A DNA stretch of 37,430 bases from a virus (IMGVR_UViG_2585427768_000010), one strand, 5' to 3'. Positions 13,697-37,430 are shown, counted from the first letter of the stretch. Notes: a model not told the origin generated them from the sequence alone. Translations and numbers: made by a program.

Positions 13697-13744
13697 TGCT
13701 CCCCCTGAGTAATTACAGGAAGATTACCCGCGCGCGAAACCGTT

Positions 13745-13800
13745 CTCCTTACCCCCCTGTTCTGGCCGTTTTCTTACAACAAAAGCCCTTTGTATCAGCC
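13745..13800. promoter_or_regulatory. Candidate late-promoter activator element in the P/O divergent intergenic region
   Basis: CCCCTGTTCTGGCCGTTTTCTTACAACAAAAG followed by CCCTTTGTATC; the same two motifs recur in the FI/D intergenic region. Confidence 0.4.
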
Positions 13801-13850
13801 TGTTACGCTTTGCCATCATGACTGAAGAACCAGTCAGAGGGGCAAAAACT

Positions 13851-18512: not shown

Positions 18513-18654
18513 CCCACCCACATGGGGAAACCTCGGAATATGGGGCGACCGCCTTCTGGATGCACTGGAAACCTGTAACGCGGATAAACGGGCCATTGCT
18601 GAACTGGATAAGAGAATAGCCGAACTGACACACCAGACGGGAGTAACACAATGA
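18343..18654 (+). CDS. lysC: o-spanin lipoprotein (LysC/Rz1-like, 103 aa, GTG start) overlapping lysB out of frame
   Basis: Lipobox LLTGC after signal sequence; proline-rich; starts inside lysB in a different frame and extends beyond it. Confidence 0.55.
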   Translation: MNSYATILQKMNAPTLCLTLVLLTGCAGTQNAPGPAPSVRLIPQTLTMPVTPPPFPDPPTWGNLGIWGDRLLDALETCNADKRAIAELDKRIAELTHQTGVTQ

Positions 18655-20531
18655 CCAGTAAGAACTTTGCACTGATTACAGCCATGACACAGGCTGAACT
18701 GACTCAAAAGGTGAATGAACATCTTGCGAAAGGGTGGCATCTTCAGGGGGAGACGCGGGTTGCCTACGAACCCGGCACCCCGTGGTATCTAATGCAGGCA
18801 ATGGTGGACGATGGCACTACAGACATCTCACCTGATTCCCCCCAGCACGGCAGCGTGCCGGAGTGGTATTACGTGGTGGTACTTGCTGGTCAATCCAATG
18901 CCATGTCATATGGTGATGGAATGCCGCTGCCGGATTCTTACGATGCGCCCCACCCACGCATTAAGCAACTGGCCCGTCGCAACACAGTGACTCCCGGTGG
19001 TAAAGCATGCGCATTTAACGACATCATTCCGGCAGACCACTGCCTGCATGATGTTCAGGATATGAGCGCACTGAATCATCCGAAGGCAGACCTGAGCAAA
19101 GGGCAGTACGGCTGTGTCGGCCAGGGCTTACATATTGCCAAAAAACTGCTCCCGTATATCCCGAATAACGCGGGGATCCTGCTGGTACCATGCTGTCGTG
19201 GTGGTTCGGCATTCACTCAGGGCGCGGAGGGAACATTCAGTACGACCACGGGGACCAGCCAGGATTCGGCGCGCTGGGGTGTGGGTAAACCGTTATATCA
19301 GGACCTGATTGCGCGCACTAAAGCTGCATTACAGAAGAACCCGAAAAATGTGTTGCTGGCGGTGTGCTGGATGCAGGGCGAATTTGACATGAGCGCTGCC
19401 ACCTACGCACAGCAACCGGACCTGTTCACGGCCATGCTGAAGCAGTTCCGTACTGACCTTTCCGGATTTAACGCGCAGTGCCATGGCGGCAGTGCTGCAG
19501 TTGTACCGTGGATTTGTGGCGACACGACGTATTACTGGAAAAACACATACGGCACACAGTATGACTCCGTCTACGGCGCGTACAAAAACAGGGAGAGCGA
19601 CAACGTTTTCTTTGTGCCGTTCATGACCGACGGTAACGGCAACAACACGCCCACCAACTTACCGGCAGAAGACCCGGATATTGCTGATGCAGGTTATTAC
19701 GGCGCGCAATCCCGTAGTAATGGTAATTGGGTATCGTCAAATCGTCCGACACATTTCAGTTCATGGGCGCGCAGGGGCATTATTTCGGATCGCCTGGCAA
19801 CCGCTATTCTGAACGCAGTTGGTCGAACCAGCGCCTTCATCAGCGGTACCGCACCGGAGATTAAACCCTCGCCCGGCGGCGACACTCCATCGGGGCCGTC
19901 TGATGGTGACACATCCGTTCGTACAGTCTCCCTGCTGCCGACAGCCGGAGAGGCTGCTGCGCAGGGCTGGACCATCACCGGCGGCAGTGTTGCGCTGGAA
20001 GATGGTGTGTTTAAGGTTACCAAGCAGAGCAATAAAACCTGGTCCCTGATGCATCCGGTGGATGACGCAGTCTCCCTGCTGACACGGGGTGGCAGACTGA
20101 GCTGTAAGTTTCGACTGTCAGGCGCACTGACCAACAACCAGTTCGGTCTGGGAATTTATCTGTATACCGATGTAGCGTTACCTGACGTCGTGGCGATGAC
20201 CGGGACTGGTAACCCGTTCCTGATGTCGTTCTTCACCCAGACCACAGACGGCAAACTGAATCTGATGCATCACAAGAAAGCCGGAAACACAAAGTTGGGC
20301 GAGTTCGGGAATTACAGTAACGACTGGCAGACGCTGGAGCTGGTGTTCACCGCCGGCAGTGCCACGGTTACTCCGAAACTGAATGGAGTGGCTGGCCCGG
20401 CATTCCAGGTCATAAAAGACAGTCTGACACTGGGGCTGAATGCGCTGACGTTAACTGATATCACTAAAAATGCCGCGTACGGCGTCGATATCGGCAGCCT
20501 GGTGCTGGAAATCAATAATCCCGCAGCATAA
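18651..20531 (+). CDS. NanS-p-like SGNH esterase (putative sialate O-acetylesterase; DUF1737 N-domain plus esterase plus C-terminal domain, 626 aa)
   Basis: N-terminal DUF1737-like segment (AMTQAELTQKVNEHLAKGWHLQGE); SGNH block I VVLAGQSNAMSYG; ATGA overlap with lysC stop; no counterpart at this position in P2. Confidence 0.65.
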   Translation: MTSKNFALITAMTQAELTQKVNEHLAKGWHLQGETRVAYEPGTPWYLMQAMVDDGTTDISPDSPQHGSVPEWYYVVVLAGQSNAMSYGDGMPLPDSYDAPHPRIKQLARRNTVTPGGKACAFNDIIPADHCLHDVQDMSALNHPKADLSKGQYGCVGQGLHIAKKLLPYIPNNAGILLVPCCRGGSAFTQGAEGTFSTTTGTSQDSARWGVGKPLYQDLIARTKAALQKNPKNVLLAVCWMQGEFDMSAATYAQQPDLFTAMLKQFRTDLSGFNAQCHGGSAAVVPWICGDTTYYWKNTYGTQYDSVYGAYKNRESDNVFFVPFMTDGNGNNTPTNLPAEDPDIADAGYYGAQSRSNGNWVSSNRPTHFSSWARRGIISDRLATAILNAVGRTSAFISGTAPEIKPSPGGDTPSGPSDGDTSVRTVSLLPTAGEAAAQGWTITGGSVALEDGVFKVTKQSNKTWSLMHPVDDAVSLLTRGGRLSCKFRLSGALTNNQFGLGIYLYTDVALPDVVAMTGTGNPFLMSFFTQTTDGKLNLMHHKKAGNTKLGEFGNYSNDWQTLELVFTAGSATVTPKLNGVAGPAFQVIKDSLTLGLNALTLTDITKNAAYGVDIGSLVLEINNPAA

Positions 20532-20554: not shown

Positions 20555-21022
20555 ATGCTTAAGACAAACAGTCTGCGAGAGTCCATGCTTCATGGGTGTC
20601 GGTGGTGCCAGGCTAATCCCGAGAAATTCACCATTTTCGTGGAGAGCGGCAACATTGAAACGACCGGAGAAGCGCCCTCGTTTGTTTACCGCTATCAGAT
20701 GGTGATGTTTGTCATGGATTACGCCGGAGAGCTGGACGACCTCACGCTGCCGCTGCTGGCGTGGTTATCCGAAAATCAGCCACAGTTGTTGCTCAATCCG
20801 GAGCGTAATCAGGACATCAAATTTTCTGCCGTTATCAATGACGATGACAGCGCCGATCTCCTGTTTACGCTCCCCCTGCGGGAACGCGTTCGCATCACGC
20901 GCAACAGTCAGGGCACACCGCAGGCAGAACACCTGCCGGAGCCAAAACCCCGTCTGCCCTCTTCCGAAGGCGACTGGTCGCATGTATTCCAGGATGTGAC
21001 GTGGGGTGAAAGCGATGGATAA
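20555..21022 (+). CDS. R: Tail completion protein R (155 aa)
   Basis: Size identical to P2 gpR and position before S. Confidence 0.8.
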   Translation: MLKTNSLRESMLHGCRWCQANPEKFTIFVESGNIETTGEAPSFVYRYQMVMFVMDYAGELDDLTLPLLAWLSENQPQLLLNPERNQDIKFSAVINDDDSADLLFTLPLRERVRITRNSQGTPQAEHLPEPKPRLPSSEGDWSHVFQDVTWGESDG

Positions 21023-21650
21023 GGCATTCACCAGCGTGGATGAAACCTTTGAGGCTATCCGCGACAGCCTGAATCAGCAGGCCATCAATAACATCGCCAG
21101 AAAGCTGGCACAGGATTTACGTCGCGCCCAGCAGGCACGTATCCGATCACAAAAAGCGCCGGACGGGACCGAATGGACACCACGCAGACGCCGCGTAACC
21201 CGGATACAGGAGCGCATTCGCTTTATCTGGAATAACGAAGCACGCACGCTGAAAAACTGGCATCACGACACGGGGAAATACGGGCGAACCATTACCGGGT
21301 GGGATGAGGATAAAAACAATATCCGCACGTTTTACCGGGATGACATCGACCGTTTTCTGGAAATACGCACCCGGCGCATCAACCAGGACAGCACAAAGCG
21401 CGTCCCCATGTTCGTAAAACTGCGCACCGCCCGCTACCTGAAAGCCCGTGCAGATGCCTCCGGTGTGACGGTGGGTTACAGCGGCGTGGCCGCACGTATT
21501 GCACGCGTTCATCAGTTCGGTGAGCGCGATCAGGTTGCGCCGGGCATTTTCACCGATTACCCGGTACGTGAGCTGTTGGGTATCAGCCAGGCAGATGAGC
21601 GCCTGATTTATAACACGGTGCTGGGCCGGATTGCGGAGGCTGTACGGTGA
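21015..21650 (+). CDS. S: Tail completion protein S
   Basis: Position; start uncertain (GTG 21006 or ATG 21015). Confidence 0.75.
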   Translation: MDKAFTSVDETFEAIRDSLNQQAINNIARKLAQDLRRAQQARIRSQKAPDGTEWTPRRRRVTRIQERIRFIWNNEARTLKNWHHDTGKYGRTITGWDEDKNNIRTFYRDDIDRFLEIRTRRINQDSTKRVPMFVKLRTARYLKARADASGVTVGYSGVAARIARVHQFGERDQVAPGIFTDYPVRELLGISQADERLIYNTVLGRIAEAVR

Positions 21651-22228
21651 GCGCAGAACTCATGCGACTGCTGAGCAACATCATCCGCACCGGGATCATC
21701 TCTGAAGTTGATGAGAAGTCCTGGCGCGTGCGCGTTCGCAGCGGCGAACTGGAAACAGGCTGGTTGCGCTGGAACACCACGCGCGCGGGAGCCTTCAATG
21801 TGTGGCTGCCGCCATCACCAGGCGAACAGGTGGTAATTGCCTGCATTGGCGGCAACCCGGAAACCGCCATGATAATTGGCAGCCTGTGGAGTGATGCCAG
21901 TCCGGCCCCCGGCAAAAGCCTGAAAGAAATCGTGGTCAGCGCGCCGGATGGCGCGGTGTTCCGCTACGACGCAGACGCTGGCGCACTGAGCGCCAGCGGC
22001 ATGAAAACAGCCACCCTGCAGGCATCCGTCAGCGTGACACTGGATACGCCCGTCGTGGAATGCACAAACCTTCTGAGAACAGCGACGCTTGACGTCACAA
22101 AAGGGGGAAAGATGTGCGGCAATATCACGCACAGCGGCGGCAACTTCACCTCAAACGGCATCACAGTGCATACGCATAAACACGGTGGTGTGAAAGGCGG
22201 CAGCGATTCGACAGGAGGCCCGCAGTGA
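21647..22228 (+). CDS. V: Baseplate spike protein V (193 aa)
   Basis: Position; C-terminal HTHKHGG apex motif typical of gpV spikes; start GTG 21647 or ATG 21662. Confidence 0.8.
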   Translation: MSAELMRLLSNIIRTGIISEVDEKSWRVRVRSGELETGWLRWNTTRAGAFNVWLPPSPGEQVVIACIGGNPETAMIIGSLWSDASPAPGKSLKEIVVSAPDGAVFRYDADAGALSASGMKTATLQASVSVTLDTPVVECTNLLRTATLDVTKGGKMCGNITHSGGNFTSNGITVHTHKHGGVKGGSDSTGGPQ

Positions 22229-24076: not shown

Positions 24077-25668
24077 CAGTGAAATACTACGCCATTCTGA
24101 CTAATCAGGGCGCGGCACGACTGGCTAACGCGACGATGCTCGGCAGTAAGCTGAATCTGACGCGAATGGCCGTTGGTGATGCAAATGGTGTGTTACCAAC
24201 ACCAGACCCTGCACAAACAAAACTGATTAACCAGAAACGCATTGCACCGCTGAATCTTCTGAGTGTTGACCCTAACAATCAGAGCCAGATTATTGCGGAG
24301 CAAATCATCCCTGAAAGCGAGGGTGGATTCTGGATCCGTGAGATTGGTCTTTATGATGATAAAGGTGTACTCATTGCGGTGGCAAACTGCCCGGAAACGT
24401 ACAAACCGCAGTTGCAGGAAGGCAGTGGACGCACCCAGACTATCCGCATGATTCTGGTTGTCACGAACACCGAAGCCATCACGCTGAAAATCGACCCGTC
24501 TGTGGTTCTGGCAACCCGCAAATATGTGGATGATAAAATCTCAAAGCACGAGCAGTCACGACGTCACCCGGACGCCTCGCTGACCGCAAAAGGCTTTGTT
24601 CAACTTAGCAGTGCCACGGACAGTCAATCAGAAACTGAGGCTGCCACGCCGAAGGCTGTGAAAATCGCGTATGATCTGGCCTGGGGAAAATACACAGCCC
24701 AGGATGCAACAACGACCCGTAAAGGGATCGTACAACTGAGCAGTGCCACCAACAGCACCTCTGAAACGCTGGCCGCCACACCAAAAGCCGTCAAGGCGGC
24801 ATACGACCTTGCAGCCGGCAAGGCCCCCGTCAGCCACACTCACCCATGGAGTCAGATAACGGGAGTGCCTGCTGCCTCGCTGACGGCAAAAGGCACCGTA
24901 CAACTGAGCAGTGCCATCAACAGCACGTCTGAAATACTGGCCGCCACACCGAAAGCGGTCAAGGATGCATACGATCTGGCAAACGGAAAACAACCGGCAG
25001 ATGCCACGCTCACTGCTCTGGCAGGACTTGCCACTGCAGCAGATCGGTTGCCTTATTTTACCGGAGCAGACCGCGCAGCGCTGGCAACCCTTACAGCTAT
25101 TGGTCGCGCTATTATCGCTAAGGGCAGTATAAAAGATGTCCTCAATTACCTTGGTTTGGGGGAAGGCTCTGCATTGCCTGTTGGTGTACCGGTTCCGTGG
25201 CCCACCGCCACACCGCCAGAAGGCTGGTTAAAGTGCGACGGGCGCGCCTTTACAAAAGAACAATATCCTGTTCTGGCCAGAGCCTACCCGACCCTCCGTC
25301 TTCCCGATTTACGCGGTGAGTTTATCCGTGGATGGGACGACGGGCGCAAAGTTGATACAGGACGTAAGTTGCTGTCCGCACAAGGGGCAACGCTGTTAAG
25401 AACAGCAATGCTGGATTATTATAACCAGGACACTACGGGAACCTCGGGGATAGTCGGCATGGGATTCAACAATGAAGATTCCATTACAGACCTTCGTGAG
25501 GGCAGCTTTAAAATGCCGGACGGGACAACATTCAGCGATCCTGTCGTGGCAATGTCAGACAATGGTATGCAGGCTACTATTCTGACCTCTATCAGAAGCG
25601 GGTATGCGAAGGGTATCACTGTCAGACCCCGTAGCATTGCACTTAATTACATTGTGAGGGCAGTTTAA
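24073..25668 (+). CDS. H: Tail fibre protein H (531 aa) with constant N-terminal 360 aa and variable C-terminal receptor-binding region
   Basis: Strong match to P2 gpH (AVGD, GGFW.RE.GLYDD.G.LIAVAN, SKHEQSRRHPDASLTAKGFVQLSSAT, DATLTALAGLATAADR, PYFTG); three internal LTAKG..QLSSA repeats. Confidence 0.9.
   Translation: MTVKYYAILTNQGAARLANATMLGSKLNLTRMAVGDANGVLPTPDPAQTKLINQKRIAPLNLLSVDPNNQSQIIAEQIIPESEGGFWIREIGLYDDKGVLIAVANCPETYKPQLQEGSGRTQTIRMILVVTNTEAITLKIDPSVVLATRKYVDDKISKHEQSRRHPDASLTAKGFVQLSSATDSQSETEAATPKAVKIAYDLAWGKYTAQDATTTRKGIVQLSSATNSTSETLAATPKAVKAAYDLAAGKAPVSHTHPWSQITGVPAASLTAKGTVQLSSAINSTSEILAATPKAVKDAYDLANGKQPADATLTALAGLATAADRLPYFTGADRAALATLTAIGRAIIAKGSIKDVLNYLGLGEGSALPVGVPVPWPTATPPEGWLKCDGRAFTKEQYPVLARAYPTLRLPDLRGEFIRGWDDGRKVDTGRKLLSAQGATLLRTAMLDYYNQDTTGTSGIVGMGFNNEDSITDLREGSFKMPDGTTFSDPVVAMSDNGMQATILTSIRSGYAKGITVRPRSIALNYIVRAV
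25139..25164. other. Invertase crossover site A (hix/gix-like, 26 bp), inside H
   Basis: Reverse complement reads TTCCCCCAAACC-AA-GGTAATTGAGGA; compare hixL TTCTTGAAAACC-AA-GGTTTTTGATAA. Confidence 0.5.
25151..25330 (+). repeat. Tail-fibre recombination repeat, copy A (direct orientation)
   Basis: About 170 bp nearly identical to inverted copies ending at 26767 and 27239. Confidence 0.8.
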
Positions 25669-26282
25669 TGAGTAACACTGCAGTTCTGGATGAAAACGGT
25701 ATCGCCACTGTAGCGGGCGATATCACTGTATATCACTATGACGAGGAAACCCGGGAATACACCTCATCCTCTGTGGAGTATCTCGCCCTTGGGGTGGGTA
25801 CTCCGGCACATTCGTGCGCCGATGCACCGCCGGAGGCAATTTCGGGTTACGTGGTTTGCCGGACTGCCACGCTGAACGGGTGGGAGCATGTGCCTGATCA
25901 CCGCGGCGAGACGGTATACAGCACGGAGAACGGTAACCCTGTTCTGATTACCCAACCGGGTGATTACCCGGCGGACACCACCACAAAACAGCCAGCCACG
26001 CCATGGGATACCTGGAACGGTGAGGCGTGGGTAACCGATACTGAACGGCAGCGAGCCGCAGAACTGGAGGTTGCCAGACAGCAACGCCAGCAACGGGTGA
26101 AACAGGCGATGGCGTCCGTCGATCTTATCAACCTCAAACTGCGTGCTGGTCGCAGTCTGACACCAGAAGAAACGGCAAAACTGAACGCCGTGCTGGATTA
26201 TATCGACGAGCTGAACGCACTGGATATCAGCACGGCACCTGAAATCAGCTGGCCGGAAGCGCCACTGGCACTTGCCAGTTGA
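25668..26282 (+). CDS. G: Tail fibre assembly chaperone G (204 aa)
   Basis: Position after H with 1-nt overlap; typical tail-fibre-assembly C-terminus. Confidence 0.8.
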   Translation: MSNTAVLDENGIATVAGDITVYHYDEETREYTSSSVEYLALGVGTPAHSCADAPPEAISGYVVCRTATLNGWEHVPDHRGETVYSTENGNPVLITQPGDYPADTTTKQPATPWDTWNGEAWVTDTERQRAAELEVARQQRQQRVKQAMASVDLINLKLRAGRSLTPEETAKLNAVLDYIDELNALDISTAPEISWPEAPLALAS

Positions 26283-26288
26283 ACGGTA

Positions 26289-26753
26289 TCACGCCGCCCT
26301 CACGATATAGTTAAACGCGATATTGCGGGGGCGGGTTATGTTAAAGAATGCTCCGTTTAATTCGGCTTTTGCGCGACTGTTTGTTCCACCCAGTATTGCG
26401 TACCACAAATAATCGCTACGGTAATTCCCCGCAAACACCTTATCGCCGCCATAGTCAATATTATTTCCGTTACTCATGTACGAGATATCAAGCGCAGAAT
26501 CGTTATCGTCATGACCGCCGACCAGTGTACCTTTCTGCCATGAAAGCAACTTACGCCCCTCGTCAATCTTGCGCCCGTCGTCCCATCCACGGATAAACTC
26601 ACCGCGTAAATCGGGAAGACGGAGGGTCGGGTAGACTCTGGCCAGAACAGGATATTGTTCTTTGGTGAACGTAGCTCCGTTGCACTGTAACCAGCCTGCT
26701 GGCGGTGTGGCGGTGGGCCATGGAACCGGTACACCAACAGGCAATGCAGAGCC
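26289..26753 (-). CDS. Alternative tail-fibre C-terminal cassette 2 (promoterless, about 155 aa; expressed only after inversion)
   Basis: Begins inside inverted repeat copy B in frame with the H constant region (LGEGSALPVGVPVPWPTATPP); ends RPRNIAFNYIVRAA like H. Confidence 0.65.
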   Translation of the reverse strand, partial: GSALPVGVPVPWPTATPPAGWLQCNGATFTKEQYPVLARVYPTLRLPDLRGEFIRGWDDGRKIDEGRKLLSWQKGTLVGGHDDNDSALDISYMSNGNNIDYGGDKVFAGNYRSDYLWYAILGGTNSRAKAELNGAFFNITRPRNIAFNYIVRAA

Positions 26754-26767
26754 TTCCCCCAAACCAA
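26580..26767 (-). repeat. Tail-fibre recombination repeat, copy B (inverted)
   Basis: Reverse complement matches 25151-25330 with a diverged central patch. Confidence 0.8.
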
Positions 26768-26779
26768 CGTTTTTATGCC
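26754..26779. other. Invertase crossover site B
   Basis: TTCCCCCAAACC-AA-CGTTTTTATGCC. Confidence 0.5.
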
Positions 26780-27225
26780 GCCCTTACGATATAATTAAAG
26801 GCAATATTACGAGGACGGTTTTCATTAGCTGTTGGCACGACACGAGAGGCGTCGAATCCAAGGTCATCGGTTTTGTCTATAGTAGTTGTGTTATTCGGCA
26901 TTCTCGCTGATCGTGTTCCTGCATCGTAAAAAGCCCCTCTGATTGCATCAAAAGACATACCGATCCCGCCATCTGCGAATCCCTCAATATTTCTTATTGC
27001 ATCCCCCTGTGAAGATAATAATTGTCGCCCGGCATCCACACCACGTCCGTCATCCCAGCCACGAATAAATTCACCGCGTAAATCGGGAAGACGGAGGGTC
27101 GGGTAGGCTCTGGCCAGAACAGGATATTGTTCTTTTGTAAAGGCGCGCCCGTCGCACTTTAACCAGCCTTCTGGCGGTGTGGCGGTGGGCCACGGAACCG
27201 GTACACCAACAGGCAATGCAGAGCC
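26773..27225 (-). CDS. Alternative tail-fibre C-terminal cassette 3 (promoterless, about 150 aa)
   Basis: Begins inside inverted repeat copy C in frame; different variable region; ends RPRNIAFNYIVRAA. Confidence 0.65.
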   Translation of the reverse strand, partial: GSALPVGVPVPWPTATPPEGWLKCDGRAFTKEQYPVLARAYPTLRLPDLRGEFIRGWDDGRGVDAGRQLLSSQGDAIRNIEGFADGGIGMSFDAIRGAFYDAGTRSARMPNNTTTIDKTDDLGFDASRVVPTANENRPRNIAFNYIVRAA

Positions 27226-27239
27226 TTCCCCCAAACCAA
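27060..27239 (-). repeat. Tail-fibre recombination repeat, copy C (inverted)
   Basis: Reverse complement nearly identical to 25151-25319. Confidence 0.8.
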
Positions 27240-27251
27240 CGTTTTCGTTTT
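27226..27251. other. Invertase crossover site C
   Basis: TTCCCCCAAACC-AA-CGTTTTCGTTTT, close to hix core AAACCAAGGTTTT. Confidence 0.5.
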
Positions 27252-27305
27252 TATCCCTACCTATACCAACTCTGTATTTTTCACGAAACAAAGAGGATGT
27301 TTTTT

Positions 27306-27905
27306 ATGCAAATTGGCTATATTCGTGTGTCAACAAACGACCAGAACACGGATTTACAACGCAATGCACTGAACTGCGCAGGATGTGAACTGATTTTTGA
27401 AGATAAAATCAGCGGAACGAAATCAACCAGACCGGGATTGAAAAAACTGCTCAGAACGCTATCAGAAGGAGATACGCTGGTTGTCTGGAAGCTGGACAGA
27501 CTGGGCAGAAGTATGAAACACCTGATCACGCTTATTGAGGAATTGCGGGAAAAAGGTGTTAATTTCCGTAGTCTGACGGACAGCATTGACACGTCAACAC
27601 CCATGGGGCGTTTCTTTTTTCACGTCATGGGGGCTTTAGCCGAAATGGAACGTGAATTAATTGTAGAGCGTACACTGGCCGGGCTGGCAGCAGCACGCGC
27701 ACAAGGACGCATTGGCGGACGTCGCCCGAAGTTGACAAAAGAACAACACGAGCAAATAGCGAGGCTGATTAAAAACGGTCATGACAGGAAACAACTGGCG
27801 ATCATTTACGACATCGGCATATCGACGATTTATCGTTATCACCCTGTAGGCGATATACAGGCTGAAGAAACAACCAGACAGACTCAGGAAAATGAAAACC
27901 GCTAA
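27306..27905 (+). CDS. Serine DNA invertase, Hin/Gin/Cin/Pin family (199 aa)
   Basis: N-terminal resolvase catalytic domain (IGYIRVSTNDQ with catalytic Ser, VWKLDRLGRS) and C-terminal HTH (ISTIYRY); AGAGGA Shine-Dalgarno before ATG 27306. Confidence 0.9.
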   Translation: MQIGYIRVSTNDQNTDLQRNALNCAGCELIFEDKISGTKSTRPGLKKLLRTLSEGDTLVVWKLDRLGRSMKHLITLIEELREKGVNFRSLTDSIDTSTPMGRFFFHVMGALAEMERELIVERTLAGLAAARAQGRIGGRRPKLTKEQHEQIARLIKNGHDRKQLAIIYDIGISTIYRYHPVGDIQAEETTRQTQENENR

Positions 27906-27921
27906 TCTGACCATTAGCGGT
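27892..27921. terminator. Bidirectional hairpin terminator between invertase and U
   Basis: AAAACCGCTAAT-ctgacc-ATTAGCGGTTTT perfect 12-bp inverted repeat. Confidence 0.55.
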
Positions 27922-27931
27922 TTTGCGTTAA

Positions 27932-28426
27932 TCAAAACAGCCCTTTAACGGAGCTGGCCGCGCTGTTAAGAGATGATGTCACTTTATCTTTGAAGCCGGA
28001 CAGCATATCGCTGAACGATGAGGATTGCAGGCGCTCCCGCAAATCCTCATCACAGCGTTCAAGAGTCAGTGAAAATTCTATCTTTTTCGCCTTACCATAG
28101 CGATCAAACTCGGAACGGGTCGTATTCGTTTCAGTCAGTACATACATGCCGTAAATCTGCCCGACACCATCAATCAGAGGCCAGGGGCGTCCTGTATATG
28201 CCTGCGTGGTCAGCAACGAAAGCGACACTTCGCCACCTGTAATTTCAGGATAAAGCACGCCGGAAAGCACAATGCGATCATCACCTGCGCCGATATACTG
28301 CCAGCCTGCTGAACGGTTAACGCGTTCATTTTTCACATGCCGCCAGCTTTTGTTTTGCTGTAACTGCTGATGCGGCAGCGTGCGCAGCTCAAAAACAAAC
28401 ATGCCGTAGATCATCATCATGGCCAT
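27932..28426 (-). CDS. U: Tail protein U (164 aa)
   Basis: Position immediately downstream of tape measure; size like P2 gpU. Confidence 0.8.
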   Translation of the reverse strand: MAMMMIYGMFVFELRTLPHQQLQQNKSWRHVKNERVNRSAGWQYIGAGDDRIVLSGVLYPEITGGEVSLSLLTTQAYTGRPWPLIDGVGQIYGMYVLTETNTTRSEFDRYGKAKKIEFSLTLERCDEDLRERLQSSSFSDMLSGFKDKVTSSLNSAASSVKGLF

Positions 28427-28432
28427 GACTCC

Positions 28433-31249
28433 TCAATCTTTATCGTAAAAACTGCCCCGCCCGGCACGGGCGCGCCGTTCCATTTCTGCCCTAACCATTT
28501 CACCGACCAGTTTCGCCAGTTCGCGGGGATTCTGTGTAACAATGTTATGCAGATGAACATGAATTTCACCGCCAAATCCGGAGGCAACAGGCTCCCGGTT
28601 ACGGGAAGTTGCAGGAGCTGATGCCACTGGCGATCGTATGGCCTCCGCCACCGGGCGGGAGCTGGCCGCAACAACAGGGACCAGCGCCGGAGGCAGCGGA
28701 GCCGGAACCACGGGTGTGATATTAATTGCGGGGGCAGGCTTACTGACCTGCGCAATCTTCCGCTCCTGCCACTCCCCACGAACAGCAAGTGCGCGGGGCA
28801 GGTTCTTAAAGACAATATCGCCGGGGCCAATGCGTTTTTTCGTCTCATCAACCAGCTTACCTGTGTTATCAGCAATTTTGCTGAGTCTGCGCAGCGTCCC
28901 GGTATTGCTGTCTGTGAGCGGTTTGTTGTCTTTGGGTTTATCACCTCCGGTGCCATTGCCATTTTCCACAGGCTTCGGCGGATTGATTTTCGCCAGGTCC
29001 CCCTGAAGTAAGGCAACCTTGTCCTGAAGAATGGCCGCACGCTGTGCGTCTTCGATTTTCTTGCGCGCCCTTTCCGCTTCATCCGGAAGGACGCCAAGTT
29101 TTTCAAGTATCCACGCCAGCGTATCCAGTAGCATTTTTGCAGGTGTCAGAACAAGTTGTAACGCACCGCCAAGAACGTTACCGAATATCTCGCCAGCACT
29201 GGTACATTTATCCAGCGTTTCCTTGCTGGACTCCATCGGTGACAACAGCGATTTAAACCAGTTAAACACCTGGCTGATCCCGCTTCCGATTGCGTCAAAA
29301 ACAGGACCAAACCGTTCAAAGGTTTCGCGCAACGGGGTCAGCCTTTCCATAATCCCGCTGAACACCCCGGCAAAAAATGCCCTGATGGGATCCCAGTATT
29401 TCCAGATGAGAACGGCAGCTCCGGCAAGCGCAGCCACGATAAGACCGACCGGACTGAACAACGCCCCGATAGCGCCCCCCAGTAACGAAACGGAACCCGT
29501 CACCATTCCCCATAGTGCTGGCAGGAGTCTGACAGCATTCATTGAACCGGTCAGGAGGGAAAAGCCAAGACGCAGTTTTGCCAGCGGGCCAGCAAGCACA
29601 CCAATAGCCAGCGACAACGAGCCAACCGTTGCAGTCATTGCCAGCAACGCACCGCCTGCTATCAGTAGCTGGCGCGTCAGTACCGGATGGGCCTGCGCCA
29701 GCGAGGTGATTTTTTCAAGCACCCGCGTGAGCCACTGCGTGACAGAACGCAGCGGACCGTCAACCAGATCACTGATGCGAATACGAAGACCTTCCCATGC
29801 GCTGTCGAGATTTTTCAGGTCCCCATCAAGATTATCGGCCATTACTTTTGCGACGCGATCGGCCTCTCCCCTTGCCCCCTGCAATTCTCTGGTCAGTTTT
29901 TGCAGCTCTCCTGAACCAGCCGCAGCAACAAGCGTCTGCAAACCAACGAACGCCTCTTCTCCGGCGATGTCCTTGAAGAAGGAAACCTGGTCCACCTGTC
30001 CGTATTTTTGTGTCGCCTTATAGAGATCAAGCAGCACATCCTCCATCGGGCGCATTTTGCCTCTGGCGTCAGCAACTGACACCCCCAGCTCTTTCAGCGC
30101 ATCAGCCGCAGCTTTTGGCGGTGATGCAAGGCGGGACAGACTTGCGCGCATGGCCGTACCAGCATCGCTTCCACGAAGACCATTATTGGCAAGCATCCCG
30201 GCCATGGCCGCCGCTTCTTCAAGACTGATACCAAGTTTTGCGGCAACCGGACCGGTATACTTCATGGTTTCGCCCAGCGCGCGTAAATCAGTATTGGTCC
30301 GGGTGAATGCCGCTGTCAGCGTATCGCCAACCCGGTCCATTTGATCGGCTGTCAGGTTGAACTGTGTGAGGATATTGGAGCCTATATCCGCCGTCTCGCC
30401 GAGTTCGACGCCACCTGCCAGCGCCATATTAAGAACACCGGGCAATGCGGCCTGAATGGCCTGCGGAGTAAAACCAGCCATTGCCAGAAAGCTCTGCCCA
30501 CTGGCGGCATCACTCGCAGTAAACTGTGTTTCAGAGCCAAGTTTTAACGCCTGCTCACGCAGCGCCTTAAACTGCGGGCTGTTTTTGTCGATTCGCGTCA
30601 GTGCCTGAACGCGGGACATCTCTTTGCCGAACCCGATCGCAGGCTGCAAAAAACGCCCGGCAGCATAGCCGCCCGCCGCTGCCGCACCAATTGCCAGCGC
30701 ACCACCTGTTTTCAGTTTTCCCGCGGTTTCCTGCGCGCGCGAATACCGCTCACGCGCCCGCGTTACACGCGCAAGCGCCTGCCGTTCGCGTTCAAGCTGG
30801 TTGTTGTACTGTTCGGTGCGTCTGATGGCCTGCTGGATGGTGTTATCGCTGCCTGTCAGGGAAATGCCGTGGCGTTTCAGCTCTCCGCCAAGCTCCCGCA
30901 TTTTCTGAATTTCCCGTGTGCGCGATTCATTCAGGCGTTCAAGCCGGGTGCTTAACTGCTGCATCAGCTTTTGTTGTTTTTCGCTGAGCACTGTACCCGT
31001 GCGTTGTAACTGATTAAGGGCGTTAAGCTGGCGTCGTGCTTTCACGATACCCGCATCCGCTTTACTGACAGCGTCGCGGGCGCGCTCAAATGATCGCGCC
31101 TGACGCTCGAGATTTTTGATCGCCCCCTGCGTTCGCTGGATGGAGTCACCAAACTGCCCCATCAGGCGGCGGGCGTTTTCGGCAGGCCGGGTCAGCCTGT
31201 CAACGGCGCTGAAAGCGACCCGGATATCAAGAGTCTTCATTGTCTGCAT
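28433..31249 (-). CDS. T: Tail tape measure protein T (938 aa)
   Basis: Long, Ala/Gly/Leu-rich coiled-coil-like ORF downstream of E/E'. Confidence 0.9.
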   Translation of the reverse strand: MQTMKTLDIRVAFSAVDRLTRPAENARRLMGQFGDSIQRTQGAIKNLERQARSFERARDAVSKADAGIVKARRQLNALNQLQRTGTVLSEKQQKLMQQLSTRLERLNESRTREIQKMRELGGELKRHGISLTGSDNTIQQAIRRTEQYNNQLERERQALARVTRARERYSRAQETAGKLKTGGALAIGAAAAGGYAAGRFLQPAIGFGKEMSRVQALTRIDKNSPQFKALREQALKLGSETQFTASDAASGQSFLAMAGFTPQAIQAALPGVLNMALAGGVELGETADIGSNILTQFNLTADQMDRVGDTLTAAFTRTNTDLRALGETMKYTGPVAAKLGISLEEAAAMAGMLANNGLRGSDAGTAMRASLSRLASPPKAAADALKELGVSVADARGKMRPMEDVLLDLYKATQKYGQVDQVSFFKDIAGEEAFVGLQTLVAAAGSGELQKLTRELQGARGEADRVAKVMADNLDGDLKNLDSAWEGLRIRISDLVDGPLRSVTQWLTRVLEKITSLAQAHPVLTRQLLIAGGALLAMTATVGSLSLAIGVLAGPLAKLRLGFSLLTGSMNAVRLLPALWGMVTGSVSLLGGAIGALFSPVGLIVAALAGAAVLIWKYWDPIRAFFAGVFSGIMERLTPLRETFERFGPVFDAIGSGISQVFNWFKSLLSPMESSKETLDKCTSAGEIFGNVLGGALQLVLTPAKMLLDTLAWILEKLGVLPDEAERARKKIEDAQRAAILQDKVALLQGDLAKINPPKPVENGNGTGGDKPKDNKPLTDSNTGTLRRLSKIADNTGKLVDETKKRIGPGDIVFKNLPRALAVRGEWQERKIAQVSKPAPAINITPVVPAPLPPALVPVVAASSRPVAEAIRSPVASAPATSRNREPVASGFGGEIHVHLHNIVTQNPRELAKLVGEMVRAEMERRARAGRGSFYDKD

Positions 31250-31495
31250 TCCCGCTGCGAAGTGCCGCCCGCTCGCGCCAGCTAACCACTTCGCCGGGCG
31301 TCATCATGAAGATTTCGGCGGGCGACCAGTTAAAAATGGCGGCAATATCCGCCACCAGATCTTCGATGTGCTCAAAGCACACCAGGGTGATTACGCTGCC
31401 GTCTCCTGCACGCTCTTCGCGCCAGAGTCTGGCTCGCTCATAAAATTTACAGCCACAGCGCACAACCGAATAAAATCGCGTGACGACATTTTTTT
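31227..31495 (-). CDS. E' extension in the -1 frame (tape-measure chaperone frameshift product E+E')
   Basis: -1 frame opens at the A7 run (minus-strand 31489-31495) inside E and ends overlapping the T start, as for P2 E/E'. Confidence 0.55.
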
Positions 31496-31765
31496 AATCA
31501 TCACTTCATCCAGTCGTGGCGAGGTCACGCGAGGCAACAGCGTGAACATGGTATCCGCTTTCAGATTCAGCACATCAGACAGCGACAGACCACGCAGGGA
31601 TCCCGCCTGCTCAATAGCCCCGGTGATCTCCACATATGTGATTTTTTCGCCACCACGCTCAATTGGCCGGGAAAGTTTTACACCACGTTCGACAGCCATA
31701 TCCTCACCTGCCGTCACATCATCCGCTACGGTGTTATTCCGGGTTTCAGTATCGATATCTTTCAT
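31391..31765 (-). CDS. E: Tail assembly chaperone E (124 aa in zero frame)
   Basis: AAGGAGA Shine-Dalgarno; position between FII and T; contains slippery A7. Confidence 0.75.
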   Translation of the reverse strand: MKDIDTETRNNTVADDVTAGEDMAVERGVKLSRPIERGGEKITYVEITGAIEQAGSLRGLSLSDVLNLKADTMFTLLPRVTSPRLDEVMIKKMSSRDFIRLCAVAVNFMSEPDSGAKSVQETAA

Positions 31766-31820
31766 CAGTTGTCTCCTTTTCAGTCAGAGGCGACGCACTG
31801 CGCCGCCTGCATATTACTTA

Positions 31821-32333
31821 TCAGCCAAGCCCAAGCGCGGAACGAATGCGGTCAGGCACAATGTCCTTGCCGTCCTTCCGGTAGATGTGGTTCAACAGGT
31901 CGATTTCCAACAGCGGGCGATCGTTAACGCTCAGCTTGTAGTAGGTGTTTTTGACAGCGTAAGTGTGTGATGTGGCTTCGCCCTGTTTGGCCTCCCCCAT
32001 ATCAATTTCCGTCACACGCCCGCGCATCTCGATTTCATACAGATCGCTTTCTGCATCGGTGTAGTATTCACCCGCAAAACGCAGCAGCGTGCCGTCAATC
32101 GTGCCGCCATATTTAAGGAACAGCGCACGAACAGCTCCCCCCATAACAAAACTCGCATCAAGCGCGGAGTCGTCCAGACCGAGATCAATACTTACCGCCC
32201 CCATCATGCCACCACCACGATAGCTGTCGGTTTTGCGCGTCAGTTTGGGCGGCGTGACGGACGTCACCTTACCCACTTCGTTTTCACCATCCACAAACAG
32301 CGTAAAAAAGCGAAGATGTTTTGGTACAGCCAT
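31821..32333 (-). CDS. FII: Major tail tube protein FII (170 aa)
   Basis: Size and position after sheath. Confidence 0.85.
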   Translation of the reverse strand: MAVPKHLRFFTLFVDGENEVGKVTSVTPPKLTRKTDSYRGGGMMGAVSIDLGLDDSALDASFVMGGAVRALFLKYGGTIDGTLLRFAGEYYTDAESDLYEIEMRGRVTEIDMGEAKQGEATSHTYAVKNTYYKLSVNDRPLLEIDLLNHIYRKDGKDIVPDRIRSALGLG

Positions 32334-33517
32334 CAGGCACCTCCCAGCACCGCAAATGCGGGACCAAAGAATTCATCAGTAAACGACTGGTAAAGCTCCA
32401 TGTCTTCCAGCGGGGGAACAGGCGTATATTTGTAGCGAATACGCACGCGCCCCTGACGTAAATTCGTGGTGCCGTTATCCACCACGTCATACCAGCACGA
32501 CGCCCCAATCAGTTTCCCGGCAGTAACCAGTGAATCCAGTTTTGCCCTGATGGCACTGATAACATCTTTCACGTTCGCAGGCGTCAGTGGACTGTCGATG
32601 GTTTCAAACTGCGCTTCCGCAATTGAATCAGCCAGCACCTGTGCGGTTCGGGTATACACCTCAAAGATGTAGGCGTTCGTTTCCGGTGTGCGGTTGCCCC
32701 AGAAGCGGAACCCGTTGCGACGAATAATGGTCGTGATTTCTTTGTTGTTGAGGCTATTGGCATCGCTGTCTTCGGCCTGCAACGACCAGAACACATGCCT
32801 GGACATCCCCAGCACATTTTTAACCGGAACGTTGGACAGTGATTTGTGCCATCCCTGCTCATGGTCAATGTACGCACGAAGGCCGCACGCATAGGCAGGC
32901 GCGGGGAACGTTTCGTTTTTGCCACTTTTCGGGTTGTAGGCGATGAAGTCCGGCCATAAGAGCATCACCTCACGTTCGTTGAATTTCTGGCGGTAGGTAA
33001 TCGCCTCAGCCATCGTGTTACAGCCGTGACATGAGGCATACACAAACGCGCGCAGTTTACCCGCAATCACGCACAGGGATTTTGTCACCGCCTCCGTGTC
33101 CAGCTCCGGCGCGGCCAGAATACGCGGACGGTATCCGATGCTTTCATCCTGCTCTGCAACAAGCAGCGCATACATCCCCGTATAGCTGCCGTCAGATTCA
33201 GAACCACCGATAACCAGTTGATCCTGCGTCTTTCCGTCTTCTTCTTTGTGTTCAGCCACGCGAACGACGATCACCTTTGTGCTCACCTGGTCTGCGATGG
33301 CCTTAAGCGCACGATAAAGCGTCCCCGTTGTCCCGCATTTTCCCAGCACGTCATTGACGCGGGTCAGCAGTGTGGGCTTGTTCAGCGGGAACAGCTTCGC
33401 GTCCGCATCATCCGCCGTTGCCACGATACCGATAACGCTGGAATCAACATCGTTAATCGCTGTTACCAGGTCGGTATTTTCCGTAACACGGGCACCATGA
33501 AAACGAGTTTCACTCAT
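32333..33517 (-). CDS. FI: Tail sheath protein FI (394 aa)
   Basis: Size and position. Confidence 0.85.
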   Translation of the reverse strand: MSETRFHGARVTENTDLVTAINDVDSSVIGIVATADDADAKLFPLNKPTLLTRVNDVLGKCGTTGTLYRALKAIADQVSTKVIVVRVAEHKEEDGKTQDQLVIGGSESDGSYTGMYALLVAEQDESIGYRPRILAAPELDTEAVTKSLCVIAGKLRAFVYASCHGCNTMAEAITYRQKFNEREVMLLWPDFIAYNPKSGKNETFPAPAYACGLRAYIDHEQGWHKSLSNVPVKNVLGMSRHVFWSLQAEDSDANSLNNKEITTIIRRNGFRFWGNRTPETNAYIFEVYTRTAQVLADSIAEAQFETIDSPLTPANVKDVISAIRAKLDSLVTAGKLIGASCWYDVVDNGTTNLRQGRVRIRYKYTPVPPLEDMELYQSFTDEFFGPAFAVLGGA

Positions 33518-33525
33518 AGCTTTAG

Positions 33526-33620
33526 CCCCTTGTATCCGTTAAATGATTCGGCAACAATCATCACCCACCACGCGCGTAATCTCACCCCTGTGCCGTTCTC
33601 CCGATCCGGCGACAACAAAA
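33526..33620. promoter_or_regulatory. Candidate late-promoter elements in the FI/D divergent intergenic region
   Basis: CCCCTTGTATCCG and CCCCTGTGCCGTT...ACAACAAAAAG resemble the motifs in the P/O intergenic region. Confidence 0.4.
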
Positions 33621-33674
33621 AGCAGTAACCCCCTCCGCACGCACATGCGACCATGCCGCACAGGGAGGGAACAG

Positions 33675-34784
33675 ATGACCGATACCACCATGCAATTGCT
33701 CAGTCAGGGCACAGACCCCGTGAAAATGCCGGATTTTGATATTCTCGCGGAGGGTAAAACGCTGTCAGGCGTGGCAGAGCGCCTGATGAGCCTGTCACTG
33801 ACCGACAACCGGGGATTTGACGCGGACCAGCTCACCATCACGCTGGATGATGCGGATTGTCAGTTGCAGCTACCGCCACGGGGCGCGCGCCTGACGGTTC
33901 TCATTGGCTGGAAAGGAGAACCGCTGACAGAAAAAGGCACTTACATTGTTGATGAAATCGCTCACGAAGGACCGCCGGACAGGCTGACTGTTTCAGCCAG
34001 AAGCGCAGATTTTCGGGATGAATTTAACGTTAAACGTGAGGTGTCCTGGCATGATGTGACCGTTGAGCGTGTGGTATCCGCCATCGCTCATCGGTATGGT
34101 CTGAAACCGCAAATCAGCGAAATGCTGATGGATATCGAAATCGACCACGCCGACCAGACCGAAGAAAGCGACATGTCCTTCCTTACGCGCATGGCGGAAA
34201 TGCTGGGCGCAATCACCACGGTAAAAAGCGGTAATCTGTTATTCATTATGCCAGGCGGTGGCGTGAACGCACAGGGCCAGCCGTTGCCATCGTTCGCCAT
34301 CACGCGCAGCAGTGGCGATCGCCATCAGTTCCGCATTGCTGACCGCGAAGCGTATACGGGGGTACGCGCTTACTGGCTTGATCTTAATTACGGGAAAAAG
34401 AAAAAAGTCAGCGTGAAACACCGCAAACCGCCAAAACCCAAAAAGGAGAAAAGCAGCAGCCGTGAAGGTGATTATATGGAAGGCGCGGAAGGCAATGTGT
34501 TTGTGTTACGCAAGACTTATCAGAACGAGCAGGCAGCAAGACGCGCAGCGGCGGCAAAGTGGCAGCAGCTACAACGCGGAGCCGCATCATTCTCCATCAC
34601 GCTGGCATGTGGTCGTGCAGAACTCTACCCCGAAATGCATGGCACGGTAACAGGATTTAAAAGCGAGATTGATAATCAGGACTGGATTATTGCAAAAGCC
34701 GAGCACACCATCGATAACAGCGGCTTTACCACGCAGCTTGAGCTTGAGGCAAAAATCTCGGAATGGATAGCAGAAACAGAGTGA
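33675..34784 (+). CDS. D: Tail protein D (late control gene D, 369 aa from ATG 33675)
   Basis: GGGAGGGA Shine-Dalgarno before ATG 33675; position before ogr. Confidence 0.85.
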   Translation: MTDTTMQLLSQGTDPVKMPDFDILAEGKTLSGVAERLMSLSLTDNRGFDADQLTITLDDADCQLQLPPRGARLTVLIGWKGEPLTEKGTYIVDEIAHEGPPDRLTVSARSADFRDEFNVKREVSWHDVTVERVVSAIAHRYGLKPQISEMLMDIEIDHADQTEESDMSFLTRMAEMLGAITTVKSGNLLFIMPGGGVNAQGQPLPSFAITRSSGDRHQFRIADREAYTGVRAYWLDLNYGKKKKVSVKHRKPPKPKKEKSSSREGDYMEGAEGNVFVLRKTYQNEQAARRAAAAKWQQLQRGAASFSITLACGRAELYPEMHGTVTGFKSEIDNQDWIIAKAEHTIDNSGFTTQLELEAKISEWIAETE

Positions 34785-34826
34785 GCAACTTAGAATAGCA
34801 GCAGCACCACGTTAAGGGAGGTCGCT

Positions 34827-35087
34827 ATGTTCCGTTGTCCGCTTTGTGGCGCATCTGCCCGTATCCGCACCAGTCGTCCGGAAAATGATTCAAACACCGT
34901 GCGGCAAAAGTATTACCAGTGTAACAACCTGGAATGCGGCGTATGCTTCTCAACACTGGAAGCTTTCCATAAATTCACATCAAAACACACCTCCGGCGTT
35001 CACTCTTCAGAAGGTATCCCGTGGCATGAGCTGCCAGCTTCACACAGGGGAAACAATCAGATGAGTTTGCCTTTACCTCAGAATTAA
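34827..35087 (+). CDS. ogr: Late transcription activator Ogr (zinc-finger, 86 aa)
   Basis: MFRCPLCG...YYQCNNLEC four-cysteine pattern as in P2 Ogr (MFHCPLCQ...YHQCQNVNC); AGGGAGG Shine-Dalgarno. Confidence 0.85.
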   Translation: MFRCPLCGASARIRTSRPENDSNTVRQKYYQCNNLECGVCFSTLEAFHKFTSKHTSGVHSSEGIPWHELPASHRGNNQMSLPLPQN

Positions 35088-35278
35088 CAGGCAGAATTGC
35101 CGGAGTAACAAAAAAGCGATAGATTACGCGCGGGTGCCTTTCGGCTGATGGTCGGAGGGAATACCCGAAGGCCAGATGTGGAAAGGCCCCGGAAAACATT
35201 TCTGTTTAACCGAGGCCCTAACATATCTACCTTAAGCAAGTGATAGGTTAGCGCCTCTCCAACAAAGGAGCAAGCGCT

Positions 35279-35419
35279 ATGTCGCAAAAATCGCTTACGG
35301 CCATCACATTCTGCGTGACGGTAATCCTCATCATCTGGATGCTACACGGTTCGCTGTGTGAAATACGGATGAGCTTCTGGGGAGCGGAGTTTGCGGCGTT
35401 CTTACAGTGTAAGCAGTAA
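35279..35419 (+). CDS. Hok/Gef-family type I toxin (46 aa: MSQKSLTAITFCVTVILIIWMLHGSLCEIRMSFWGAEFAAFLQCKQ)
   Basis: Hand-translated; single transmembrane helix followed by SLCEIR and AAFL.C motifs shared with Hok/HokA-type proteins; AAAGGAG Shine-Dalgarno. Confidence 0.6.
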   Translation: MSQKSLTAITFCVTVILIIWMLHGSLCEIRMSFWGAEFAAFLQCKQ

Positions 35420-36427: not shown

Positions 36428-36514
36428 TGGTACCCGGAGCGGGACTTGAACCCGCACAGCGCGAACGCCGAGGGATTTTAAATCCCTTGTGTCTACCGAT
36501 TCCACCATCCGGGC
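36428..36514 (-). tRNA. leuZ: tRNA-Leu (anticodon TAA), 87 nt
   Basis: Reverse complement matches remembered E. coli leuZ sequence (GCCCGGATGGTGGAATCGGTAGACACAAGGGATTTAAAATCCC...CCA). Confidence 0.9.
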
Positions 36515-36526
36515 TCGGGAAGAAAG

Positions 36527-36600
36527 TGGAGGCGCGTTCCGGAGTCGAACCGGACTAGACGGATTTGCAATCCGCTACATAACCGCTTTGTTAACGCGCC
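36527..36600 (-). tRNA. cysT: tRNA-Cys (anticodon GCA), 74 nt
   Basis: Reverse complement matches remembered E. coli cysT (GGCGCGTTAACAAAGCGGTTATGTAGCGGATTGCAAATCCG...). Confidence 0.9.
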
Positions 36601-36654
36601 AAATTCTTCAGGCCTTTCAGCCAGACATCCGCTTGAGGCCGATGTCTTTTAAAC

Positions 36655-36730
<76 letters not shown>

Positions 36731-36881
36731 ATTCATCAAGCAATCAGTTAATCACTTGATTTTATTATCGTCTGGCAATCAGTGCCGCCGTTCGATGCGT
36801 TGCATTCTACTTACCTGGCGCGATGAGTCAACGATATTTTTCACCACTTTTGATCGTTTGCTGAAAATTGCGCCGAAACGA

Positions 36882-37430
36882 TCACTGATCAAGCAAATCT
36901 GCACGCGCAGCGCTCAAATATTGCAACATTGACCACAGAGTCAGTACCGCAGCCACAAAGAAAAGTGCAATACCGGCGTACTCAACCCAAATGTTCGGAC
37001 GCCACAGCAGCCAGGCCAACGCCACCATCTGGGCAGTGGTTTTCACTTTCCCAATCCAGGAGACAGCCACGCTACTGCGTTTACCCAACTCCGCCATCCA
37101 TTCGCGTAGCGCAGAAATAATAATTTCACGGGCGATCATCGTTGCCGCCGGTAGGGTCACCCACCAGCTGTGATAATGCTCGGTTACCAGCACCATGGCG
37201 ATAGCCACGAGAACTTTATCTGCTACAGGGTCAAGGAAAGCACCAAACCGGGTACTCTGGTTCCAGCGGCGTGCCAGAAAACCATCGAACCAGTCAGTCA
37301 CCGCCGCGACGCAGAAAATGAGCGCGGCGGCAAACGGCGACCAGGTGACAGGCAGATAAAAGACCAATACAAAGAATGGGATAAGGATGACACGGAACAG
37401 TGTAAGCAACGTAGGGATATTAAATTGCAT
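36882..37430 (-). CDS. pgsA: CDP-diacylglycerol--glycerol-3-phosphate 3-phosphatidyltransferase (182 aa, complete)
   Basis: Translation [27 protein letters not shown]...[11 protein letters not shown] matches E. coli PgsA; upstream of glyW-cysT-leuZ as in E. coli. Confidence 0.9.

Follow-up and report, generated by a model that had tools for sequence, protein, structure and literature searches.

In the F operon of phage P2, the tail genes FI, FII, E, E′, T, U and D are followed by ogr, and all of them lie on the strand that also carries H and G. The U and D genes overlap in this operon, and D is an essential tail gene of P2. The P2 record also describes one activator site that is common to the divergent promoters pP and pO, from which transcription starts 55-56 nt to either side. 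The dyads recognized at P2 late promoters conform to the consensus TGT-N12-ACA (PMC3931495). In Smp131, a P2-like phage of Stenotrophomonas, late genes have been redistributed among operons that keep promoters of the TGT-N12-ACA type, including a shared P/O site (PMC3931495). Smp131 thus offers a precedent for a viable P2-family phage with rearranged late operons, although in Smp131 it is V and W that have moved, and an inversion of FI through U is not reported.

Several other members of the family are known as functional phages. P88, which was obtained by induction of E. coli K88, is plaque-forming with a burst size of ~65 and has been imaged by electron microscopy (PMC5285337). The Citrobacter phage PhiSM likewise produces plaques and can lysogenise K-12 strains (PMC6456863), and for SEN4 and SEN5 both plaques and electron microscopy images are available (PMC5261728). 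The prophage described here is an ordinary member of this known and named group of phages, and its gene order has already been published. In the literature on P88, Xuanwuvirus, PhiSM and SEN4/5, we found no comment on the flipped orientation of the FI-U block that is our subject.

The stretch of DNA analyzed, hereafter the window (37,430 nt), carries a P2-family prophage adjoining the tRNA-Leu/Cys/Gly-pgsA locus, and the only Rfam matches in the window are the three flanking tRNAs. Gene identities were assigned from the ORF list together with PHROGs and Pfam profile searches. The full P2-type late gene set is present (Q P, O N M L X, the lysis genes, R S V W J I H G, the tail genes, D and ogr), and its order is that of P2 except for the flipped FI-U block. 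To the left of this block, a serine DNA invertase of the Gin/Cin/Hin type is encoded on the plus strand (27306-27905; Pfam Resolvase, 2.4e-51, and HTH_7; phrog_125). The block itself occupies the minus strand. It begins with FI, encoding the gpFI sheath (32333-33517; phrog_23, 2.3e-125; Pfam Phage_sheath_1 and Phage_sheath_1C), and continues with FII, encoding the gpFII tail tube (31821-32333; phrog_55, 1.8e-58), whose equivalents are labelled major tail tube in the annotations of P88, PhiSM and E. coli genomes. The gpE tail assembly chaperone follows (31391-31765; phrog_103, 5.6e-36), with an E′ extension (31227-31448) that enters the -1 frame at the slippery heptamer A_AAT_TTT (31448..31442) and stops at a TGA overlapping the T start; the ORF list contains an ORF at 31227-31463 that covers this region. 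The gpT tape measure gene (28433-31249; phrog_28, 3e-219) and U, encoding the gpU tail protein (27932-28426; Phage_P2_GpU, 7.7e-39; phrog_76), complete the flipped operon.

To the right of the block, the plus strand resumes with D, encoding the gpD baseplate hub (33675-34784; Pfam Phage_GPD; phrog_52, 8.9e-164), whose start is supported by the ribosome-binding sequence GGGAGGG. Next comes a gene for an ogr-like zinc-finger late activator of 86 aa and of the Ogr/Delta type (34827-35087, plus strand; Pfam Ogr_Delta, 5e-14), with a match of 52.4 bits against a cut-off of 26.3. Its cysteines C4, C7, C32 and C37 are spaced CX2CX24CX4C, versus CX2CX22CX4C in the P2 activator (PMC3931495).

The original prediction had placed FI, FII, E/E′, T and U on the minus strand between a plus-strand invertase and plus-strand D and ogr, in contrast to a P2 order of FI, FII, E, T, U, D and ogr on the H/G strand. 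The ORFs, PHROGs and Pfam matches bear out the first statement and the P2 record the second. The right boundary likewise falls where it had been put, in the 157-bp divergent spacer between FI and D (33518-33674), with 33674 being the base just before the D start codon. At the left boundary a terminator-like hairpin is indeed found, at coordinates 3 nt from those proposed (27895-27924 rather than 27892-27921). This hairpin has a 12-bp stem, would be usable on either strand, and sits where the invertase and U genes converge, extending over the stop codon of the invertase.

When set beside the P2 F operon, the window shows the same internal gene order, the same E/E′ frameshift arrangement, an Ogr-type activator, and an activator dyad ~83 nt upstream of the FI start codon. 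In P2, however, the operon follows the H/G strand and includes D, which overlaps U, whereas the window has FI-U in the reverse orientation and a solitary D with a start region of its own. Protein identity between the two operons is only 33-50%.

Far closer relatives exist. When the segment from 26000 to 35300 was used as a megablast query against phage genomes, all matched phages belonged to the genus Xuanwuvirus: P88, P884B11, 500465-2, PhiSM, PhiR44_2 and Chuche align with positions 27312-35300 in a single collinear piece at 92-95% identity. Specifically, P88 and PhiSM match the window from the invertase to ogr at 92-94% nucleotide identity with every tail gene in the same order and on the same strand, and they have the same P/O spacer and dyad. 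The D protein of P88 is 99% identical, and an E′ equivalent is annotated in that phage. The differences lie in the accessory genes, such as a gene for a 626-aa DUF1737-SASA esterase that the window has in addition to those of P88, and in the fibre cassettes to the left of the invertase, where P88 and PhiSM have no match over 26000-27306.

The flipped layout is not confined to this genus. It is collinear in plaque-forming phages of three genera of Peduoviridae, namely Xuanwuvirus (P88, PhiSM), Senquatrovirus (Salmonella phage SEN5) and Reginaelenavirus (a Klebsiella phage). Its distribution was surveyed by using tblastn to place tail genes around D homologues in IMG/VR and in one genome per species, where an arrangement was called canonical if U, plus FI where the contig extends that far, lies on the D strand. 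In IMG/VR, every locus whose D protein is at least 63% identical to that of the window is flipped (57/57) and every locus at 54% or below is canonical (23/23); among the species representatives the corresponding counts are 55/55 at 61% or above and 25/25 at 53% or below. Pooling these 160 D-gene loci yields 112/112 flipped at 61% or more and 48/48 canonical at 54% or less. The flipped loci read U, T, E, FII and FI on the minus strand, then D and ogr on the plus strand. Their hosts include Escherichia, Salmonella, Klebsiella, Enterobacter, Citrobacter, Kosakonia, Serratia, Pantoea, Pectobacterium, Brenneria, Edwardsiella, Yersinia, Hafnia, Xenorhabdus, Photorhabdus, Providencia and Morganella, among others.

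Within a single host species the layout is also common. Of 5426 complete E. coli genomes, 1362 contain the 6.6-kb stretch across both junctions in collinear form, including EC958 and strains of O157:H7, O104:H4 and O145. When 701 bp with the FI/D junction at the centre were used as the query, 1370 E. coli genomes matched and 1355 of them had the junction intact; in the other 15 the match extends over less than 80% of the query, and the one example listed is truncated.

These counts bear directly on whether the block was simply mis-oriented during assembly of a prophage that truly has the P2 order. A mis-join is possible in principle given that both boundaries are short intergenic regions, but beyond this only the difference from P2 speaks for such an error. 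The same orientation recurs in single collinear pieces in independently sequenced phages and in the complete E. coli genomes, the FI/D junction is intact in 99% of matching genomes, and neither boundary holds repeats able to mislead an assembler. We therefore give an assembly inversion practically no chance of being correct.

The original prediction had framed the locus as either a real rearrangement with rewired late transcription or an assembly inversion, and had allowed that functional relatives with the same layout would make it a lineage trait rather than an anomaly. Such relatives are at hand in P88, PhiSM and SEN4/5. Because these viable phages, all 112 clade loci and 1362 E. coli genomes share the layout, it is a lineage trait. 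What stands is a real inversion relative to P2 with rewired late transcription; what falls is the view of it as anomalous or artefactual, given that the layout is common to the whole clade. As a practical consequence, a template based only on P2 would flag this layout in about one quarter of E. coli genomes, where neither a rearrangement nor a mis-assembly should be assumed.

The invertase gene that abuts the block raises a different possibility, namely that this serine invertase or another recombinase actively flips FI-U and that the window captures one of two states. Din-family invertases can use secondary sites. The sites expected of such a switch are absent, however. No crossover-like site within 2 mismatches of AAACCNNGGTTT occurs at 27.9 kb or 33.5 kb, and a search for long inverted repeats at the two ends of the block returned only chance-level pairs. 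Crossover-like cores are instead found at 25146-25157, 26761-26772 and 27233-27244, around the tail-fibre cassettes, where the H segment at 25148-25387 also recurs in inverted form at 26542-26770 and at 27003-27242. Furthermore, a single FI-U orientation is observed throughout, both in the 112 clade loci and in the 1355 E. coli genomes with an intact junction. Many members of the flipped clade carry no invertase at all. Salmonella phage Fels-2 (Felsduovirus) offers the converse case: as in the window, an invertase (81% identical) follows alternative fibre cassettes, but FI through D then continue after it in canonical order and without a change of strand. An active switch is thus extremely improbable.

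Fels-2 thereby shows that the presence of an invertase and the flip are not tied to each other. In the flipped clade, the invertase may or may not adjoin the block on its left, and it is unrelated to the inversion. Among 1477 matching E. coli genomes the invertase-U junction is found in 631, and elsewhere the match begins at ~27926, which marks the left boundary of the block as a mosaic joint with variable neighbours. In these respects the original prediction, that hix-like sites and long inverted repeats are lacking at the block ends and that the tail-fibre invertase is probably not responsible, agrees with the repeat and crossover-motif searches and with the location of its sites beside the fibre cassettes.

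Neighbour-joining trees of 142 distinct loci were built for D, which lies outside the block, and for FI, which lies inside it. Both trees separate flipped from canonical loci in 100/100 bootstraps. Four outgroups (P2, Fels-2, phiCTX and a Mannheimia phage) have the canonical order with U and D overlapping, and for this reason the canonical order is taken as ancestral; the trees are unrooted, and polarity comes from these outgroups together with the 48 canonical loci. The recovery of the same split by D and by FI indicates, as the simplest history, one ancient inversion that has spread over Enterobacterales.

If so, a segment comprising the pF promoter and FI-FII-E/E′-T-U would have been inverted in place in a forebear of what is now a large branch of Peduoviridae in enterobacteria. 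One breakpoint would have fallen upstream of the pF activator site and the other at the overlapping junction between the U stop and the D start. The inverted segment would have brought pF along, and the pF control region would have come to rest beside D, after which the arrangement was presumably fixed and carried on by viable phages. This would make the locus a clean and datable case of an operon-scale inversion fixed in a phage lineage that spans most of Enterobacterales. The flip also serves as a simple synapomorphy that sets the Xuanwuvirus/Reginaelenavirus/Senquatrovirus branch apart from the other Peduoviridae examined. GC skew was considered as an age marker for the flip and was rejected, since skew tracks the coding strand whatever the age.

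Tail modules move between phages, and the mosaic joint at ~27926 could be read as the edge of an FI-U module that came from another myovirus and was inserted in the opposite orientation. Identity to P2 and Fels-2 is nevertheless similar inside the block (FI 45-48%, FII 43-45%, U 46%) and outside of it (D 50-53%, J 50-54%, I 54-61%), and such even divergence speaks against a tail module of foreign origin. So do the split shared by the FI and D trees and the spacing between the dyad and the FI start codon, which is 80-88 nt in the clade versus 83 nt at P2 pF. Replacement of the module is accordingly an improbable origin for the block. It would in any case alter only the history of the locus and not its present function.

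Overall, we assign a probability of roughly 0.85 to the reading that the window carries a P88-like prophage of the Xuanwuvirus type with the layout normal for its clade, that this layout goes back to an ancestral inversion in place, and that one dyad most likely drives two late promoters. The last element of this reading concerns the FI/D spacer.

Upstream of D, the plus strand is antisense for 5.6 kb, and a terminator precedes this stretch. Because D is essential, viable phages with this layout should require a promoter for it within the FI/D spacer. A generic sigma-70 scan returned no more matches than shuffled sequence and nothing above chance in this spacer, as is to be expected for activator-dependent promoters. 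The exact P2 consensus TGT-N12-ACA is matched 6 times in the window versus 8.3 expected, with none of the matches in the P/O or FI/D spacers. The dyads in both spacers were recognized only after alignment of relatives, where a perfect TGT-N12-ACA occurs at the position aligned to the window FI/D dyad. Both window dyads read TCT-N12-ACA, with one mismatch to the consensus, and were for this reason missed by the exact search. The wider palindrome GTTNT-N12-ANAAC occurs 4 times in the window versus 0.56 expected. Only two of these matches are intergenic, and they lie in the P/O spacer (13759-13780, centre 13769.5) and the FI/D spacer (33595-33616, centre 33605.5), each as GTTCT-N12-ACAAC(AAAA). 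The FI/D spacer holds a single copy.

On either side of the FI/D dyad, a candidate -10 hexamer can be placed 46 nt from the dyad centre. On the FI side this is GATGAT (33557-33562, minus strand), with a predicted start at ~33550, and on the D side it is GACCAT (33649-33654, plus strand), with a predicted start at ~33661. The P/O spacer of the window provides a comparator, in which TAATCT (13722-13727, minus strand) and CATCAT (13814-13819) lie 45 nt and 47 nt from the dyad centre, respectively, and O starts at the ATG at 13851, matching the P88 annotation. Transcription would be predicted to start here at ~13715 on the minus strand and ~13825 on the plus strand. The dyad-to-hexamer distance in P2 pF is 45.5 nt. 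The predicted geometry of the FI/D spacer resembles that of P2 pP/pO, with a dyad midway between back-to-back promoters.

Conservation follows the same pattern. The 157-bp spacer is near-identical in all Xuanwuvirus-level loci, and across the flipped clade FI/D spacers measure 146-163 bp, nearly all with exactly one T(G/C)T-N12-ACA dyad, which lies 65-84 nt from the D start codon. In an alignment of 16 diverse spacers with a mean column identity of 59%, the invariant columns are those of the dyad, of nAnnAT on the FI side (A2, A5 and T6) and of nAnnnT on the D side (A2 and T6). In each of the 16 spacers, the distance from either hexamer to the dyad centre is 46-47 nt. A conserved block resembling CGCGCGCG is found just upstream of the D-side hexamer.

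From these features we infer that the FI/D spacer is a bidirectional late promoter built like P2 pP/pO, that the Ogr-like protein would bind to its dyad, and that the D-side hexamer probably belongs to an active, activator-dependent promoter. Specifically, the single dyad would fire a leftward promoter for FI through U, with transcription ending at the hairpins beside the invertase, at 27938-27956 or 27895-27924, and a rightward promoter into D and probably on into ogr. In this way D, probably together with ogr, would form a new late unit. We regard it as reasonably probable that one Ogr dyad fires both FI-U and this D(-ogr) unit, and hence that the phage has a second divergent switch of the pP/pO kind. 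The ability of a dyad-symmetric activator site to serve promoters on both sides would explain why the inversion was apparently tolerated.

Alternatively, the conserved D-side columns could be upstream elements belonging to the FI promoter. In that event the dyad would serve FI only, and D would be expressed from an Ogr-independent promoter or by some other route. Such an arrangement would fit the weakness of the D-side hexamer in the window, the separate promoter from which ogr is transcribed in P2, located downstream of D, and a promoter-like site within the 3′ end of the window D gene (34647-34676). On the other hand, A2 and T6 of the D-side hexamer stay invariant at 46-47 nt from the dyad in 16/16 spacers in spite of a mean column identity of 59%, and this hexamer is a mirror image of the arrangement towards FI and resembles the geometry of P2 pP/pO. 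The pattern of dyad, CGCGCGCG and -10 element also recurs at the pV position of SEN5. An Ogr-independent route to D is therefore unlikely, although it retains an appreciable chance.

With a bidirectional FI/D promoter, the shared-site design that P2 uses at P/O only would apparently be used twice in the flipped clade, as judged from sequence. This promoter, a variant of the P2 pP/pO design, may be the only new part of the system; in the literature we found no earlier description of bidirectional late control at FI/D. If the model is correct, ogr would come under the control of an Ogr-dependent promoter, creating a positive feedback loop. Moreover, the entire Xuanwuvirus late regulon would be run by just two symmetric divergent switches, since the S and V genes overlap and a third intergenic dyad is absent.

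Against the promoter model speak the short predicted 5′ UTR of D, at only ~14 nt, the weak D-side hexamer, and the single-base departure of both window dyads from the P2 consensus. In a Klebsiella relative, a perfect GTTGTG-N10-CACAAC is present at exactly the P/O and FI/D spacers. In one subgroup of the flipped clade (L050-L052), the symmetric variant TCT-N12-AGA takes the place of the usual dyad.

The genes from O to G, spanning about 12.4 kb, may be carried on one late transcript, unlike their counterparts in P2. Specifically, the window lacks a spacer that could hold the late promoter pV because S (21006-21650) overlaps V (21647-22228), and the entire window includes only two intergenic copies of the Ogr-type dyad that we take as the late-activator site. 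Together, these features of the sequence make a single O-to-G transcript possible. In contrast, Salmonella phage SEN5, which belongs to the same flipped-block clade, still has a dyad of the pV type separating its S and V genes (position 9263 of its comparison locus, L086).

The start of O that is given by the longest open reading frame, at 13818, is probably wrong: an ATG at 13851 has the sequence GAGGGG just upstream, agrees with the annotation of the related Escherichia phage P88, and fits the predicted start of the late promoter pO. The homologue of replication protein A (5028-7850, plus strand) is 940 amino acids long, whereas P2 A has 761 (a 2286-nucleotide gene). P88 likewise carries the long form, at 2823 nucleotides.

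A tail-fibre shufflon with multiple cassettes occupies 25146-27291. Here a segment of H (25148-25387) recurs as two inverted copies (26542-26770 and 27003-27242) with 90% complementarity, and crossover-like cores are present at 25146-25157, 26761-26772, and 27233-27244. The two alternative C-termini for H (26289-26762 and 26773-27291, both on the minus strand) are promoterless, and neither comes with a chaperone gene, whereas P88 carries one alternative fibre paired with a chaperone. P88 also lacks a gene at the site where the window, after its lysis genes and before R, encodes a 626-amino-acid esterase-like protein (18651-20531, plus strand; phrog_143). Its domains are DUF1737, DUF6645, and a sialate O-acetylesterase-like one (SASA), and the protein is similar to NanS-p, an esterase that Stx prophages carry as a moron.

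The flank at the ogr end (36428-37430, minus strand) carries tRNA-Leu(taa), tRNA-Cys, tRNA-Gly(gcc), and a pgsA-like CDP-alcohol phosphatidyltransferase gene, and is probably the chromosomal attachment side. Since the integrase gene (1-1002, minus strand) sits at the extreme left edge, the second att site lies beyond the window.

The region 3′ of ogr (35111-35297) is 83% identical to the hok/mok-like "prophage host toxic membrane protein" region of Stx phages, and P88 has a MokW-like gene annotated at its counterpart; no Rfam family matched this interval at the gathering score. The gap between D and ogr, 42 bp in the window, is enlarged by 1-4 kb of extra DNA in many Xuanwuvirus-level relatives (comparison loci L007, L013, L014, L016, L017, L021, L023, L024, L025, L030, and L053); accessory genes seem to insert preferentially at this site. 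Another D locus (L090; contig NZ_JBQPOM010000071.1), 97% identical to the E. coli prophage in the window, comes from an assembly of the Gram-positive "Vagococcus sp. WN89Y", where it most likely represents enterobacterial contamination.
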